DNA of 5,993 bases from a virus (IMGVR_UViG_2663762849_000004:1-5993); one strand, 5' to 3'. Shown: positions 1 to 5,993, numbered from the stretch's first letter. Numbers and translations are program-made. The notes: generated from the sequence alone by a model not told the origin.

Positions 1-436
1 CACCGAGCCGGAATTTCATGAAATCCCGGGAGGTAAACGGGCATTTCAGTTCAAGGCCGTTGCCGTCACTGCATAAACCATCGGGAGAGCAGGCGGTGCG
101 CATACTTTCGTCGCGATAGATGATCGGGGATTCAGTAACATTCACGCCGGAAGTGAACTCAAAGAGGGCTCTGGCGTCGTTCTCGTACTGTTTTCCCCAG
201 GCCAGCGCTTTAGCGTTAACTTCCGGAGCCACACCGGTGCAAACCTCAGCCAGCAGGGTGTGGAAGTAGGACATTTTCATGTCAGGCCATTTCTTTCCTG
301 AGCGGGGTTTTGCTATCACGTTGTGAACTTCTGAAGCGGTGATGACGCCGAGCCGTAATTTGTGCCACGCATCATCCCCCTGTTCGACAGCTCTCACGTC
401 GATCCCTGTACGTTGCAGGATAATGTCCGGTGTCAT
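1..436 (-). CDS. exo: Lambda-type 5'-3' exonuclease (Red-alpha), N-terminal 145 codons; gene continues past the left edge
   Basis: Translating the minus strand from ATG at 436..434 gives [50 protein letters not shown]..., which I recognise as the N-terminus of phage lambda Exo. The frame is open to the window edge. The start overlaps the bet stop as ATGA (433..436), as in lambda. Confidence 0.9.
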
Positions 437-1218
437 GCTGCTACCTTCTGCTCTGTGACTTTCTGTTTCAGGAATCCAAGAACCTTCACAGCTTCAGCCT
501 GTGTTAGTTCTGAAGATGTGTAAATGTTGCGGCGAAAAATCTGGGAACAGAGCGGCAACAGGTCGTCATCCCACGTTTTTTCCATGGAAGTAAGAAGGGC
601 GTTAATTTCCGACATGGTTTCTTCGTTAACCGGGGTGATGTCGCGTTCCGGCTGACGTTCTGTAGTATATGCAGTATTTTCGACAATACGCTCGGCTTCA
701 TCCTTGTCATAGATGCCAGCAAATCCGAAGGCCAGGCGAGCACACTGAATCATGGCTTTGTGCCGTAACATCCGTTTGGGATGCGACTGCCACGGTCCGG
801 TGATTTCTCTGCCTTCGCGGGTTTTGAATGGTGTGCGGCGACATTCATCCATCCACTCGGTAACGCAGATCGGGTGATTGCGATCTTTGCGGTAAATCCG
901 GCATGTACAGGACTCATTGTCCTGCTCAAAGTCCATGCCATCAAACTGCTGGTTTTCATTGATAATGCGGGACCAGCCATCAACGCCAACCACCGGAACG
1001 ATGCCGTTCTGCTTGTCAGGGAAGGCGTAAATTTCTTTCGTCCAGGGATTAAGGCCGTACTGGTTGGCGACGATCAACAATGCGATAAATTGCGCATCGC
1101 TGGCATCACCTTTAAATGCCGTCTGGCGAAGAGTGGTGATTAGTTCCTGTGGGTCGACAGAATCCATGCCGACACGTTCAGCCAGCTTCCCTGCCAGCGT
1201 TGCGAGTGCTGTACTCAT
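433..1218 (-). CDS. bet: Red-beta single-strand annealing protein (Bet), 261 aa
   Basis: The 261-aa translation ([44 protein letters not shown]...) matches lambda Bet over its whole length, with a few substitutions near the C-terminus. ATG start at 1218..1216; TGA stop at 435..433, overlapping the exo start. Confidence 0.95.
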
Positions 1219-1223
1219 CCGTT

Positions 1224-1520
1224 TTATACCTCTGAATCAATATTAATTTGGTGACGGGCGATGGTTTCAGCCATGTAGCGGATGTGTTCTGCCATGCGTT
1301 CCTGAAAATCGACATCGTCATCAAATGCACGGGAAATAGCTTTTTTGCTGGCCCCGTGACGTTGCAGATTATCGATGCATAGCGATTCAAACAGGTGTTG
1401 GGGCAGACCTTTTTCCAGGTCGTCTGCCAGCTCAGCTTCAGTTTCTTCACGGGCAATTTGCTGGTAGTGTCGTGCCCATGACTGCTCTTCAATGCGATCG
1501 GGGATAAGCCAGGCATTCAT
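1224..1520 (-). CDS. gam: Gam, host RecBCD nuclease inhibitor, short isoform only (98 aa)
   Basis: The translation [26 protein letters not shown]...[20 protein letters not shown] is clearly related to the lambda GamS region but diverged more than Bet or Exo. ATG at 1520..1518. An in-frame TAA two codons upstream excludes a long Gam isoform. TAA stop at 1226..1224, 5 nt from the bet start. Confidence 0.9.
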
Positions 1521-3589
1521 GATTTATCACCTCCGAAATTTTCAAGCCTGTTGGCAATCATGATGGCGATATCAGGGATTGCTGGCGCTGTGGCTATACA
1601 TGCGGGGTTGGCGCACAAACCATAGACGGCGGCAATCACGAGCTGTCTTTTCCAGTCGAGAGTTACTGGCTCAGAATTGGCGTCATCGCCGGACGTATCA
1701 CTGCCTGGCTCGTTCTGAACAACGGTTTCGCCCTCCTGAGCGGCATCAACAGAGTTTTCCTGAATGATCTTCTCCTCAGTTTGTGCTGAGTCTTCTCCAT
1801 CAGCGGCGTCATTTTCTCCAAAAGTTTCTGTGTAAGTGCTATCGCCCATTACCGCACTACAGTCAGGGCAGTTACCCCCGCCAGTCTGACCACAGACGCG
1901 GCAGTTTTTTTCCAGCTCCGGTTGCGCTACTGGCCCTGGCTGTTGCTCTTCTGGCCCGTTTTGTTGCGTATCCGGGCTGTTTTGTCCCGCTTCTGGGGCA
2001 ATTTGTTCCACTTTGGACTGATTCTGGTCCTCAGTGTCGCGAGTCTGGATCCCCTTCACCCACTTCGGATCAGCAGGGTTACTGATGCCTTCAACGAATT
2101 CTCCACGCGAGGCAGCCAGTAATTTGTCGGCATCGACTGGATTTTTTGGGGGGATGTTTTCCCTGGCTTTATTGAGTTCCTCCCTCAGTTCCTGGTATTT
2201 CGTTTCTACAGATGAGACATTTTCCAGTGATTGCGTGTCCTCATTATGTTTAACTGGAATTTCTTCCACTGATTCAGGCGCTGCCTGTTCATTAGCCATT
2301 GTGTCCGATGCTTGTTGCTTTTCTTCATCGCCATGTTTTCCTTCTGCTGTTCCGCGCTGCGGCATCGGTGCTGATGAGCGACCGCAGGCAATTTCCACGA
2401 TTTCCGGATCCGGGTTAGCGTGATCGGTTTCGGTCAACACTTTGTTGAGATATTCAGTCACGCGTGCCGGGATGGCCTCAATGCCGATTGGTGCTTCTTT
2501 CACGGAAGCCACCACAATGGCGCGGGAATAATCCAGCCCACCGGGCATGGCGATAAATTTGTCGCGAAAAACAGAAAAGGGCGGCTTATTCTCTGACACG
2601 ATTTCTTCAACGCGTTTTGCGTGTGCTGGGTGCAGGTTATAAATATCCACATCCATTGAACGGGCCAGAACGCCGGTGGCTACATCTCGTGCGAGTGATG
2701 TCTTATCATGTTTGAATCCTTCACCACGATCGGTAATATTTCCGCCGCCAGCGTTAGCACCGGAAGGCGTACGGGTAATGCCTGAAACATAATTTCCGTT
2801 CTGCCATTCTTTTGTCAGCAGGCCCTGATCAAGGTAGTCAGTTTTCATCCAGGTGGAAATGAACTTGTCGAATTCAGCCGGGCTGATGCGATGATTTGCA
2901 GAGTGGGGGAATGCTTTCCCTACAGATTCAGCCAGGCGACTAAGGTGATAGTTCGTCAGTTTATCCAGTTCATGATGCGCGGCGCGCACAGCAGTAAGCA
3001 GGCTCTGAAGGTAACTGTCCTCTGTGTCCATCTCCATACGGATCACGTTATTGCGTTGTTCTGGTGTGGCATGATGCCGGTATTTTCCATCTTCATCTTT
3101 GCTGAATAAGAAGAGGTGAAGGAAGCGATGAGTAAGGCTCAGAGTGGCGACGGGAATTTCACACTCAGAACAGTCATCGTCGCTGTCCGGGGATTCGCTT
3201 TTCTCCACATCATCCGGAATAGTTCCGTCCAGGTTATCGTTGTCATCGCCAGCAGTTGTGGCATCTTCACCGTTGATGTTGTCATCGAAGGGGATAGCCA
3301 TCATGGTGATGCCATCGTTACCGCCTTTTTCATAGCGGTTGCAGAATTCAGTATCAAACACGCCTTCCGGTGGAAGGTCATTCACAACGGGTAAATGGAC
3401 GCGGATGGGTTTTTTAAAATCCTCTTCGTCAAATCCGGCATCGTCCATTGCAGCAACACCGCGTGATATTGCAACCGATAATTTTTTTGCTGTGCGCCAG
3501 TAAAAACCACCTTTAATCCCAAGGCGTTTTCTGACTTTGTCATTTTTGGCTTCGTAATATAGTGCAATTTCTTCTTTATCAGCGTTCAT
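1517..3589 (-). CDS. Hypothetical 690-aa protein of unknown function: basic N-terminal region, acidic tract, central globular region, Q/E/P-rich low-complexity segment, CxxC-x7-CxxC motif, hydrophobic C-terminal tail
   Basis: A 2073-nt uninterrupted ORF on the same strand as the Red genes. ATG at 3589..3587 is preceded by GAGG 7 nt upstream. The TGA stop (1519..1517) overlaps the gam ATG as ATGA, implying co-transcription and translational coupling. Plus-strand ORFs inside this span are short antisense shadows. I recognise no family. Confidence 0.8.
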
Positions 3590-3681
3590 TGATAAACCTC
3601 ATAACCATTTTAAGGATGAACAAATTCCTGCCATTGCTGGCATTTTTAATCCGTTGGTATGGCGTTAATATGGCTGGCGGG

Positions 3682-3870
3682 TTATCCAGCCGGTGTTTCG
3701 TTATTCAGGTACAGCGATACTTTTTTTAACGGGAGGCATTCACCGGGGATTTTTTGTTCGTCCCTTACCTGAATGCAGGATGACTTACTGTCATAAATTC
3801 CGGTAATCACATTCTGCGGCTCACCCGTTATAAGAAAAACGGTCATTATCAGTGCAAACGCTGAAGTCAC
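3682..3870 (-). CDS. Hypothetical 62-aa protein with a hydrophobic N-terminal segment (MTSAFALIMTVFLITG...); GTG start
   Basis: ORF with GTG at 3870..3868 preceded by GGAGAA at about -8. The start overlaps the stop of the upstream ORF as GTGA (3867..3870). An alternative internal ATG at 3846 has no RBS. The short length keeps this call uncertain. Confidence 0.45.
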   Translation of the reverse strand: MTSAFALIMTVFLITGEPQNVITGIYDSKSSCIQVRDEQKIPGECLPLKKVSLYLNNETPAG

Positions 3871-4055
3871 TGCTGTTCTCCGATAATACCAAGTTCAAGA
3901 AGGGCAATTCTGGAAAGTATGGAATTATCATTGAGAAGATAAGGTTCATATTTTCTCATCTTAATGGCATCTTCAGTAAACTCCCGGTTACTGAGCAGAA
4001 CTCCAATATCAAAACAACCTTCAGACGTATTAACGTTTGGTAATAACGTTTCCAT
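3867..4055 (-). CDS. Hypothetical 62-aa protein (METLLPNVNTSEGCFDIGVLLSNREFTEDAIKMRKYEPYLLNDNSILSRIALLELGIIGEQQ)
   Basis: ATG at 4055..4053 with GAGGA 7 nt upstream. The TGA stop at 3869..3867 overlaps the next start. The six-frame track extends this frame to an ATG at 4202 (111 aa), but that extension has a poor RBS, runs through the inverted-repeat segment and has Arg/Cys/Gly/Pro-rich non-protein-like composition. Confidence 0.5.
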   Translation of the reverse strand: METLLPNVNTSEGCFDIGVLLSNREFTEDAIKMRKYEPYLLNDNSILSRIALLELGIIGEQQ

Positions 4056-4072
4056 TATCGCGTCCTCAACAA

Positions 4073-4222
4073 TGAATTTTGTGATGCAGTGCCTGGTGCC
4101 TCCAGGTGACGTTAACCAGTTAACAACTAACGCCGGGTCAGGGGACGATGACTTTCCGTGACATCCTGTCGGTTTAACTGTTCCGCGTGCGCATAGCCGC
4201 ATTCACCGCATCACAAAATTCA
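4073..4222. repeat. Pair of inverted repeats (15 bp perfect, 18/19 when extended) bounding a ~112-bp internal segment
   Basis: TGAATTTTGTGATGC at 4073..4087 is the exact reverse complement of GCATCACAAAATTCA at 4208..4222. Extended to 4073..4091 and 4204..4222 the arms match at 18 of 19 positions. The interior holds two GTTAAC sites 8 bp apart (4111..4116, 4119..4124) and a small CCTGG/CCAGG hairpin (4092..4106). Confidence 0.6.
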
Positions 4223-4267
4223 CTTTAAAAAGGGCGGACATCAGCAATCGGCAAACCGATGTCCGCC
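4221..4267 (-). terminator. Candidate rho-independent terminator for minus-strand transcripts
   Basis: A perfect 10-bp GC-rich stem (4233..4242 GGCGGACATC pairs with 4258..4267 GATGTCCGCC) with a 15-nt loop. On the minus strand the stem is followed directly by C-UUUUU-AAAGUGAAUUUUGUG (complement of 4232..4212). The plus-strand side has no U-tract. The loop is longer than typical. Confidence 0.45.
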
Positions 4268-4506
4268 AAGGGCTACACACAGCAATGTTGTTATTCACAA
4301 CCGGAAGCGCACGGTCGAAGAAATCTAACGACAAGCCTTCAATGGGAAAGAGTCTTCGCCGTGCACTTTCGTGTTGTACCCTGGCTTTCAGGGTAATGTC
4401 TGTTCAGTAAACTGAGAGTGCCGGAACTTACCCGTGTCCGGCGCACGATCTCCACCTCACCCGTGGAGAACTCCTCAACTACAAACCCCGTAAGGAGAGT
4501 GAGTTT

Positions 4507-4716
4507 ATGACACAAGAAGAAAAAGTGATGTTTCTGATGCGGCTGGCTGTCGATACCTACAACACACAATTCAGGGAGAAAGATATACCTCAAAAGGCAG
4601 TTCCTGCCGCGGTAGATAAGGGCGGTGCTATTGCCGTATTTTACGATGCATTTGAATCATTTTTTAATGAAAAACTCGACGCTGTTAGCGGCTTCGGAAC
4701 ATCGAGTAATAAATAA
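4507..4716 (+). CDS. Hypothetical 69-aa protein on the opposite strand to the rest of the operon
   Basis: ATG at 4507 is preceded by a strong RBS, TAAGGAGAG (4491..4499), 7 nt upstream. The ORF runs to TAA at 4714..4716. It converges on, and overlaps by 32 bp, the 3' end of the minus-strand gene 4685..5044. The competing minus-strand ORF 4339..4593 has junk-like composition. Confidence 0.45.
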   Translation: MTQEEKVMFLMRLAVDTYNTQFREKDIPQKAVPAAVDKGGAIAVFYDAFESFFNEKLDAVSGFGTSSNK

Positions 4717-5044
4717 CGTTCATTACGGTTCTTAAACAACAATCAGTGGGCTTGATGTTGTTCTTTTCAAGCTCACTTGCCATCACTTCCATTATTCTTG
4801 CACTTACACGAATTATTTGGTGGCTGTAAGCGATGCAACTGTCGCTGATATTGCTGTTTATTTCTATTACTTCATTTTCACCATTAGCATCAACTTCGGA
4901 TGCGCTGTTTTCATTATCCTGTTTCAGTGCTTTTTCTGCCATCTGGATGCGTGTCAGCGTTGCGGAATTTGGGCTAAGTCGATAAACCTGTCTGGCATCT
5001 TCCAGAAGCAGGGCGATAATGTGCTTCAGTTCTGTTTCGTTCAT
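4685..5044 (-). CDS. Hypothetical 119-aa protein (MNETELKHIIALLLEDARQVYRLSPNSATLTRIQMAEKALKQ...)
   Basis: ATG at 5044..5042 with GGAG 6 nt upstream. The track's 126-aa version starts at a TTG at 5065 that lies inside the RBS. No family recognised. Confidence 0.6.
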   Translation of the reverse strand: MNETELKHIIALLLEDARQVYRLSPNSATLTRIQMAEKALKQDNENSASEVDANGENEVIEINSNISDSCIAYSHQIIRVSARIMEVMASELEKNNIKPTDCCLRTVMNVIYYSMFRSR

Positions 5045-5075
5045 AGTTAACTCCGGTAGTTGCAATTTATTAATA

Positions 5076-5381
5076 TCAGGCGGTCAGCTCTTTAAGCTTC
5101 TGAACTGCTTTATTCATTTCATCCATACAGTCGATGAATTCGTCCAGTTTAAGCTGCATTTTTCCGGCGGCCTGAAGAATTTCAAGTTTTAAGGGCGCAA
5201 GTTTTTTGTTGAATGCATCATCTTCCTGGCGTTTTTTCTCCGCAATTTCGGCGGCTTTCAGCAATTCTTCAGCCTGTTTTCTGAGTATTTCTGGTGAAGG
5301 TGAAACTGCTTTGAGGTTATTCATTTCAGGTTCCTGTTGTTGCAGAATTAATTTGTTGCATTCTCTGCGTGAGCGTTTCAT
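5076..5381 (-). CDS. Hypothetical 101-aa protein, Lys/Glu/Ala/Leu-rich, predicted coiled coil
   Basis: ATG at 5381..5379 overlaps the upstream gene's TGA as ATGA (5378..5381). An alternative internal ATG at 5324 with AGGAA 6 nt upstream would give 82 aa. The sequence ...EILRKQAEELLKAAEIAEKKRQEDDAFNKKLAPLKLEILQAAGKMQLKLDEF... has a heptad-like charge pattern. Confidence 0.6.
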   Translation of the reverse strand: MKRSRRECNKLILQQQEPEMNNLKAVSPSPEILRKQAEELLKAAEIAEKKRQEDDAFNKKLAPLKLEILQAAGKMQLKLDEFIDCMDEMNKAVQKLKELTA

Positions 5382-5788
5382 TGCAGATTCGCACTTCTTG
5401 CAATAAATGGCTCTCCCGTCACGCTTGCTGGCATCTGAATAAAAATCATTGACTGATTTTGTCTGCCCGCATCTGGTACATAATTTTGATTGAAGGTCCT
5501 TAATGATTGTGACGTTTCCTTCCCGCTTGGGATATCCATATTTTTGTGGCGTAAAAAGGTTACTCCGTTACCAGAACCTTCTTTTCTGACCTTAAATACA
5601 ATGATGCTTTCCCGTTTATCGATAAAATCGATGAGCTGGTTTCTCTCCTTTCCTGACAGTTCGGCAAATGTCTTAACTTTTTTAGTAACCTCAGTAAGGC
5701 GAACGCCGTCAGGCATTTTTTCAACGAAGTTTTTAATCTCTGCAAGCGGACGCCATAATTTTTGCGGCAAAACTGAAGGCGTGGTCAT
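5378..5788 (-). CDS. Hypothetical 136-aa protein (MTTPSVLPQKLWRPLAEIKNFVEKMPDGVRLTEVTKKV...)
   Basis: ATG at 5788..5786 with GAGGTGA 5 nt upstream; the track's first codon is a TTG at 5791. Three nt separate it from the stop of the upstream partial ORF. No family recognised. Confidence 0.65.
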   Translation of the reverse strand: MTTPSVLPQKLWRPLAEIKNFVEKMPDGVRLTEVTKKVKTFAELSGKERNQLIDFIDKRESIIVFKVRKEGSGNGVTFLRHKNMDIPSGKETSQSLRTFNQNYVPDAGRQNQSMIFIQMPASVTGEPFIARSANLQ

Positions 5789-5791
5789 CAA

Positions 5792-5993
5792 TCACCTCGC
5801 CGTCAGTTGTTTTGATTTCCGGTAGCCTGCCGCGTAAATGGCTACGTTTGGAAGACATACACCAGTTTCTGGTTGCTTATGTCCAAACTCATTCGCGTAC
5901 ACAATGGCTGCTCGCTCCAGATTGCGTCTGTATTCTTTCTGTTGCCAGATCACGTCCTGTGCCATGAACTTAATTGGCTTAGCGTCTTCTATG
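5792..5993 (-). CDS. 3' end of a minus-strand ORF entering from the right edge (...MAQDVIWQQKEYRRNLERAAIVYANEFGHKQPETGVCLPNVAIYAAGYRKSKQLTAR)
   Basis: This frame is open from the window edge to TGA at 5794..5792, which sits inside the RBS of the next gene. An internal ATG at 5965 lacks a convincing RBS, so the gene probably starts outside the window. Confidence 0.5.
   Translation of the reverse strand, partial: IEDAKPIKFMAQDVIWQQKEYRRNLERAAIVYANEFGHKQPETGVCLPNVAIYAAGYRKSKQLTAR

Follow-up and report, generated by a model that had tools for sequence, protein, structure and literature searches.

A probable dicB–ydfD module of the lambdoid dicBF type in the early-left operon of a lambda-like prophage

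Introduction

In E. coli K-12, ydfABC, dicF, dicB and ydfD are carried on a single polycistronic transcript that undergoes processing (PMC10448788), and the functions of several of its products have been described. The loop of the small RNA DicF pairs with the ribosome-binding site of ftsZ (PMC5069750). The protein DicB binds MinC, and ZipA-mediated targeting of the complex to the septal ring leads to disassembly of the FtsZ ring; via the same interaction with MinC, DicB inhibits ManYZ, so that both mannose uptake and the entry of DNA from lambda-type phages are blocked (PMC6832061).

The partner gene, ydfD, encodes a product annotated in RefSeq as a “lysis protein”. According to the account given in PMC8835842, which cites Masuda et al. 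2016, induction of YdfD lyses cells and the co-expression of dicB or sulA prevents this, from which it follows that lysis depends on ongoing division; growing, dividing cells are indeed required (PMC8835842). YdfD was further reported to act on the MEP isoprenoid pathway by binding IspG and inhibiting it, lysis being relieved by over-expression of ispG or by the IspG product (PMC8835842). This mechanism comes from one paper, whose evidence consists of pull-down, FRET and rescue data and does not include enzyme kinetics (PMC8835842).

The present analysis follows up a preliminary description of a stretch of viral DNA of 5,993 nucleotides (IMGVR_UViG_2663762849_000004:1-5993), which is referred to throughout as the window. 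The locus at 3682..4055 is very probably the dicB–ydfD module of a lambdoid dicBF operon, situated within a lambda-like prophage's early-left (pL) operon. This reading draws on family membership, conserved coding, a 4-nt gene overlap and cassette behaviour, with the functions being taken from the K-12 homologues.

Results

Two overlapping genes on the minus strand

The features of the gene pair, all on the minus strand, are as follows.

4063..4067, minus strand: dicB Shine-Dalgarno GAGGA, read from the sequence, with the ATG 7 nt further on
3867..4055, minus strand: dicB, encoding the 62-aa cell-division inhibitor DicB (ATG 4055..4053, TGA 3869..3867)
3878..3881, minus strand: DUF1482 Shine-Dalgarno GGAG, read from the sequence, within the 3' end of dicB, with the GTG 7 nt further on
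3867..3870, minus strand: GTGA stop/start overlap, read from the sequence, a putative translational coupling junction
3682..3870, minus strand: ydfD-family gene, encoding a 62-aa DUF1482 protein (GTG 3870..3868, TAA 3684..3682)

Two overlapping 62-codon frames, each with a ribosome-binding site, had been claimed in the preliminary description, which gave no strand; both were recovered at the same coordinates on the minus strand, and GAGGA and GGAG were each found 7 nt from the respective start. The upstream frame opens with ATG and is closed after 62 codons by TGA (product METLLPNVNTSEGCFDIGVLLSNREFTEDAIKMRKYEPYLLNDNSILSRIALLELGIIGEQQ, N-terminus METLLPNV), while the downstream frame opens with GTG and is closed after 62 codons by TAA (product (M)TSAFALIMTVFLITGEPQNVITGIYDSKSSCIQVRDEQKIPGECLPLKKVSLYLNNETPAG, N-terminus (M)TSAFALIMTVFLITG). 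The GTGA overlap likewise held on direct reading, the plus-strand TCAC at 3867..3870 being GTGA on the minus strand, such that the GTG start of the DUF1482 gene is shared with the TGA stop of dicB. Around the dicB Shine-Dalgarno, the leader aligned with that of K-12 Qin without a difference.

In a mechanical ORF list, the dicB frame can be extended upstream in-frame by 49 codons to an ATG at 4202, giving an ORF of 111 aa. The Pfam DicB model nevertheless aligns end to end with residues 50-111 of this longer ORF only, and the extension (4056..4202, minus strand) loses its frame at about 4145, where K-12 differs by a 2-nt indel, although the leader is conserved at the nucleotide level. For these two reasons the 62-codon reading is taken as correct, and the extension, as judged from the alignment, is not conserved as coding sequence. 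Gene callers elsewhere sometimes report ‘DicB’ products of 95 aa or 114 aa.

Family membership

The upstream frame is, by its family profiles, full-length DicB. Positions 1-62 of 62 of Pfam model PF05358 were matched at E 3.7e-38 (129.5 bits against a cut-off of 27), and NCBIfam NF049927 scored 111 bits against a cut-off of 100. The product is 61% identical to K-12 DicB and 100% identical to the RefSeq-annotated DicB of E. coli O103:H2 str. 12009, and it shares the family's general features: a length of about 62 aa, an ATG that is internal to and in phase with a longer ORF, and a hairpin in the DicF position followed by a conserved leader upstream. A sequence search of the PDB with DicB returned no match.

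The downstream frame is, by the same kind of comparison, a ydfD-family (DUF1482) protein, scoring 52.8 bits against Pfam PF07358 (cut-off 25) and E 1.7e-32 against PHROG 1092, and matching YdfD of the K-12 Qin prophage over its full length of 62 residues (45% identity, E 6e-21). It carries the hydrophobic N-terminal segment, the two conserved cysteines and the C-terminal PAG of the family. The exact 62-aa sequence (P0001) is present on 262 contigs in public databases under the name ‘DUF1482 family protein’, and some database members of its cluster are named ‘YebW family protein’; no NCBIfam model matched it.

The search of small-protein profiles that the preliminary description had proposed therefore returned two families above their cut-offs, and at E <= 0.01 Pfam gave nothing else for either ORF. 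An identity with lambda Kil or CIII was rejected on this result, in agreement with the earlier impression that neither ORF resembles them. A Hok/Gef or Ldr type I toxin was rejected as well, as neither a Pfam or PADLOC match nor a cis-antisense Rfam family was found.

The small size of both proteins, the hydrophobic N-terminus of one of them and the toxicity of the over-expressed homologues, with YdfD lysis being counteracted by DicB (PMC8835842), could together suggest a toxin–antitoxin addiction module of type I (Hok/Ldr-like) or type II. This is very improbable. No Hok/Gef, Ldr or antitoxin family was matched in Pfam at E <= 0.01, PADLOC returned no defence-system match for the two proteins and the three upstream ORFs, and no antisense family of Rfam was found on the strand facing 3682..4055; the nearby sRNA, situated upstream of dicB, is antisense to neither ORF. 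Moreover, the suppression of lysis by DicB is indirect, since SulA, an unrelated division inhibitor, suppresses it too (PMC8835842), DicB is toxic by itself, and the genes belong to a repressor-controlled early phage operon. The preliminary idea of a host-killing, modulator or superinfection-exclusion function thus stands in so far as the K-12 homologues do these things (PMC6832061, PMC8835842), but not as a Hok/Ldr-type or classical toxin–antitoxin pair. Nor is exclusion to be assigned to the hydrophobic peptide, for in K-12 this activity belongs to soluble DicB (PMC6832061).

Both frames are conserved as coding sequence

Eighty-four copies of the pair were compared: that of the window, its counterparts in K-12, O103:H2 and E. 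albertii, and those of 80 IMG/VR loci. Neither frame is interrupted in any of the 84, and the DUF1482 start lies 185 nt past the dicB start in every copy, the junction being GTGA in 70 and ATGA in 14. Where synonymous differences exist between the window copy and other alleles, dN/dS (Nei-Gojobori) ranges from 0.09 to 0.46 for dicB and from 0.13 to 0.51 for DUF1482, and the variable sites at codon positions 1/2/3 number 7/4/16 in dicB and 9/6/18 in DUF1482. The intact frames, fixed offset, low dN/dS and third-position variation indicate that both ORFs are coding sequences under purifying selection, so that the pair passes the test of frame conservation by which the earlier reading was to stand or fall.

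That one or both of these frames are open by chance and not translated could be argued from their very short length and from the GTG start of the downstream one, yet this carries a negligible likelihood and is refuted as far as the sequence evidence reaches. In addition to the conservation in 84 of 84 copies, the dN/dS values below 1 and the concentration of variable sites at third positions, both ORFs exceed curated family thresholds, the two alternative frames contain 9 and 5 stops in the DUF1482 ORF and 1 and 10 in dicB, and protein activities have been demonstrated for the K-12 homologues (PMC6832061, PMC8835842).

Distribution and linkage of the pair

The dicB and ydfD-family pair is already known and is annotated in thousands of E. 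coli genomes. Of 5,426 complete E. coli genomes, 4,636 gave a megablast match to the surrounding 1 kb, and RefSeq annotates the same pair (“dicB” and “DUF1482 family protein”) in both E. coli O103:H2 and K-12. Where the preliminary description had treated the ORFs as unidentified, they are in fact members of named and characterised families already in RefSeq, and the pair is not new.

Within the phage collection, DUF1482 lies directly downstream of DicB in 20 of the 20 records that contain DicB, and a DUF1482 subtype (P0105) with 53% identity to that of the window again shows the order dicB, 4-nt overlap, DUF1482, Exonuc_VIII. A scan of genome contigs with the single protein gave only one locus, in E. 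albertii. DUF1482 is also found without DicB in phages of Klebsiella, Citrobacter and Salmonella. There it follows other small ORFs: an unrelated one of 37 aa with a 4-nt overlap in the Klebsiella phages (L084, 2254..2692), and an unrelated one of 66 aa, N-terminus MKxxxxVPNxGRAV, with a 1-nt overlap in the Citrobacter and Salmonella phages (L085 and L086, 2301..2698). These upstream ORFs could be further division inhibitors or other partners. The recurrent overlap with unrelated small ORFs suggests that coupling of DUF1482 to a small early-operon ORF is general, with DicB as its Escherichia partner.

The hydrophobic N-terminus of the DUF1482 protein

The hydrophobic N-terminus noted in the preliminary description is present, with its core at residues 4-14, but it is short: the mean Kyte-Doolittle value is 2.84 over 11 residues and falls to 1.41 over 19, and the stretch of 11-13 residues is not preceded by a positively charged n-region. 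An alignment of 10 sequences across genera (Escherichia, Klebsiella, Citrobacter and Salmonella copies) showed L7, T10, G16, C32, E38, Q39, C45, P47, E58, P60, A61 and G62 to be invariant, with the C-terminal motif E..PAG kept across genera. From a shallow alignment of 30 Escherichia sequences, AlphaFold2 produced one model at pLDDT 80 and four at 48-56. In the former, residues 5-12 form a beta strand, not a helix, that pairs with residues 18-26 in a beta-beta-alpha-beta mini-domain, for which a Foldseek search of the PDB gave no match at E <= 0.001. The stretch, which in the preliminary description looked like a signal peptide or a single transmembrane helix, may accordingly be a signal peptide, a membrane anchor or a buried strand.

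These features invite the alternative that the DUF1482 protein is exported or acts in the envelope, and is not an inhibitor of IspG at the cytoplasmic face. Residues 4-14 would then be a signal-peptide-like h-region, followed by a small-residue site at which T-G precedes E-P, and C32 and C45 would form a disulfide; in its natural setting the protein would serve to remodel the envelope or to exclude phages instead of causing lysis, and DicB would act mainly in superinfection exclusion. With its 11-13 residues, the hydrophobic core falls short of the length of a standard transmembrane helix. G16 shows no variation across genera, nor do the two cysteines, which would be easier to reconcile with a periplasmic disulfide than with a cytoplasmic target. 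Such a role agrees with the finding of DUF1482 apart from DicB, both in the phages of Klebsiella, Citrobacter and Salmonella and, unpaired, on the chromosome as yebW, and also with its position as an early-operon gene outside the late lysis cassette. Even so, we consider export or envelope action distinctly unlikely, given the missing n-region charge and a sole confident structural model that places residues 5-12 in a strand of a small globular domain, the other four models being poor. YdfD's C-terminal domain, deprived of the hydrophobic segment, is reportedly still toxic when made in the cytoplasm, which would favour a target at the cytoplasmic face. Binding of cytoplasmic IspG and rescue by ispG over-expression, both reported for YdfD (PMC8835842), point in the same direction.

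DicB divergence and the DicF-position element

Divergence of the window DicB from its K-12 counterpart is concentrated in its C-terminal part. Of the N-terminal 35 residues, 27 are identical to K-12 (77%), against 11 of the C-terminal 27 (41%), and the net charge is -5 in the window as opposed to +3 in K-12. Two further features precede dicB.

4232..4281, with a 5' tail to about 4300, minus strand: DicF-position sRNA-like element, a divergent dicF allele
4056..4231, minus strand: conserved dicB leader, from the sRNA terminator to dicB, nearly identical to K-12 Qin in alignment with K-12 and O103

The element consists of a single-stranded tail AUUGCUGUGUGUAGCCCUU, a 13-bp GC-rich hairpin (GGCGGACAUCGGU...GCUGAUGUCCGCC) and U5, and its fold is well separated from that of shuffled sequence (z = -4.0). 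Against the Rfam DicF family (RF00039), whose gathering score is 48, it reached no more than 29.5 bits (E 4e-4). Only the base of the terminator stem and the position are shared with DicF; the 5' tail and the loop are replaced, and the loop bases used in K-12 for pairing with the ribosome-binding site of ftsZ are missing. The leader beside it hardly differs from that of K-12, so that only the sRNA body has been swapped. Among the loci anchored on the leader, canonical DicF is found in about 65, a different 5' tail in 12 and a short hairpin in 3, with a few loci being unique; the allele of the window is otherwise found only in locus L004 and in phages PhiR5_2 and phiSTEC1589-Stx1c. This rare allele in the dicF position, rather than the gene pair, is the most unusual nearby feature.

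RNAduplex predictions against the ftsZ translation-initiation region gave p = 0.11 for the variant and 0.08 for canonical DicF, neither of which beats shuffled sequences. Rfam at gathering thresholds returned no match over the whole window, and at permissive thresholds only sub-threshold DicF, STnc100 and RprA matches were seen near dicB. A 14-nt stretch of the element, AUUGCUGUGUGUAG, is the RprA consensus found just 5' of the RprA terminator, the overall RprA match, at E 0.4, not being significant. The leader also matches STnc100, an sRNA family of gammaproteobacteria, but weakly, at 27.2 bits and E 0.001 where the gathering score is 47; the match spans 4023..4234 (minus strand), a region that includes a conserved hairpin, CACCUGGAGGCACCAGGCAC, just before the dicB Shine-Dalgarno.

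The acidic C-terminal half of DicB (59% diverged), the 55% divergence of the DUF1482 protein and the non-canonical sRNA in the dicF position could also be taken to mean that this allele pair and its sRNA form a coordinated variant module with targets other than those of the K-12 pair, from which it would be functionally distinct. We regard this as unlikely. Were it true, possible targets would include a different phage receptor in the inner membrane or a different envelope enzyme, and the DUF1482 protein would be a DicB-dependent envelope effector and not a lysis protein.

Operon context and a swappable cassette

The remaining features of the window place the pair in its operon.

5792..5965, minus strand: C-terminus of the N antiterminator (PF25694)
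5076..5791, minus strand: split gene, as ORFs of 137 aa and 101 aa (PHROG 2539)
between the split gene and the DicF-position element, minus strand: ORF of 126 aa
3601..4070, minus strand: swappable cassette of 470 bp with dicB and DUF1482, absent from the closest relative
1517..3589, minus strand: RecE-like protein of 690 aa (profile matches)
1224..1520, minus strand: Gam
433..1218, minus strand: Bet/RecT
last gene of the window in minus-strand order: N-terminus of lambda Exo

The gene order is thus N ... DicF-like sRNA, dicB, DUF1482, recE-like, gam, bet, exo, and the window is a lambda-type pL operon in which the pair is placed where lambda has kil and cIII. The assignment of the pair to the kil slot in the preliminary description was borne out by the closest relative of the whole window, a prophage of E. 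coli G1/2 (98% identity), which matches 1..3600 at 97.6% and 4071..5993 at 99.0% and has a Rac-type kil and a 128-aa hypothetical ORF between the matched blocks (L088, 3426..4229). One breakpoint of the cassette lies 15 nt ahead of the dicB ATG and the other 11 nt ahead of the recE-like start. With kil occupying the space between the same leader and recE-like gene in G1/2, the dicB–DUF1482 segment behaves as a discrete cassette that alternates with a kil cassette.

Some observations were made on the flanking genes. The 137-aa and 101-aa ORFs are halves of one gene, a single ORF of 237 aa in strain G1/2; the split results from a 1-nt deletion in an A run at about 5541..5546 (A5 as against A6), pointing to a frameshift pseudogene or else to a sequencing error in the homopolymer. 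With the exodeoxyribonuclease VIII model (cut-off 1269 bits) the RecE-like protein scored 746 bits and aligned only over positions 1-598 out of 877, and with PHROG 607 only over positions 1-618 out of 883; as both matches end there, it lacks the C-terminal nuclease part; RefSeq annotates the same 690-aa ORF in strain G1/2. The recE-like stop overlaps the gam start and a full lambda Red set (gam, bet, exo) lies downstream, which looks like a mosaic joint between RecE-type and Red-type recombination modules.

Discussion

Taken as the dicB–ydfD module of a lambdoid dicBF operon, the locus would be expressed as follows. Upon derepression, the N-antiterminated pL transcript would read through the sRNA terminator, and with the operon driven by N and pL, expression would be expected early after induction. 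By analogy with the K-12 homologue, the 62-aa cytoplasmic DicB would bind MinC and be brought to the septal ring via ZipA, dismantling the FtsZ ring and causing filamentation, and the DicB–MinC interaction would also inhibit ManYZ, blocking the DNA entry of lambda-type phages. Its DUF1482 partner, being of the YdfD type, would be expected to bind IspG and, when over-produced, to lyse dividing cells unless DicB or SulA prevents it.

The DUF1482 protein would be translated by ribosomes terminating on dicB, as suggested by its weak GTG start, a Shine-Dalgarno inside dicB and the GTGA overlap. In stability, the fold of the RNA across the junction does not stand out from shuffled controls (z = -0.5), and an occluding hairpin was not found in it; the junction RNA being without special structure, the coupling is suggested solely by the overlap geometry. 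Such coupling would mean that a potentially lytic peptide is produced only together with the division inhibitor by which its lysis is masked.

At the level of annotation, the result gives two small ORFs, otherwise filed as unknown, their correct names. At the level of the operon, it suggests the lambdoid early-left kil slot to be a site of interchangeable division-inhibitor cassettes, with Rac-type kil in the nearest relative and dicB–ydfD in the window.

Comparison with known systems

Alleles identical or nearly so are carried by E. coli O103:H2 str. 12009 and by the PPompW and Stx2a prophages, in which DicB is 100% and the DUF1482 protein 93-98% identical to those of the window; they are annotated there as ‘cell division inhibition protein DicB’ and as ‘DUF1482 family protein’ or ‘hypothetical protein’. 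Their flanks are unlike those of the window: ydfA/ydfC lie upstream, and past the pair comes a longer annotated exonuclease gene, of 805 aa, and after it xis and int. They also carry canonical DicF.

Lambda Kil and Rac KilR resemble DicB in their pL position and in their outcome, a block of FtsZ-ring function, but have no sequence relationship to the window pair in Pfam. Kil and KilR are reported to act more directly on FtsZ. DicB, unlike either, acts via MinC and ZipA (PMC6832061). The chromosomal K-12 paralogue YebW (b1837) is of the same Pfam family and similar length as the window DUF1482 protein; its gene is, however, not paired with dicB and is located outside any early operon of a prophage, with a gap of 104 nt separating it from yebV (DUF1480) before it.

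Several single-gene lysis proteins are known to block envelope precursors, such as E of phiX174 on MraY, A2 of Qbeta on MurA and LysM of phage M on MurJ, all from unrelated families, and YdfD has likewise been proposed to be a small protein of this sort, which lyses cells by depriving cell-wall synthesis of its precursors, in this case via IspG (PMC8835842). Unlike these, DUF1482 is encoded by an early-operon gene of a tailed temperate phage with its own late lysis genes, for which reason lysis is unlikely to be its native role.

With the dicB–ydfD pair of K-12 Qin (b1575–b1576), the window shares both families, the gene order, the 4-nt overlap (in K-12, dicB ends at 1649797 and ydfD starts at 1649794), a nearly identical leader from the sRNA terminator to dicB, and a recE-like gene next in line (ydfE in K-12). 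An in-frame upstream extension of dicB is likewise present in K-12, as mentioned in PMC8835842 with reference to Cam et al. 1988. The differences lie in the proteins, at 61% identity for DicB and 45% for YdfD, with the diverged C-terminal half of DicB acidic in the window, in the DUF1482 start codon, which is GTG and not ATG, and in the dicF body, which is another allele. Finally, whereas Qin is a DicA-controlled cryptic remnant, the element in the window has the appearance of an intact pL operon of lambda type that carries N and the Red genes, and a lambda-type prophage with the pair under N/pL control would offer a better system than Qin for establishing the role of the ydfD partner.
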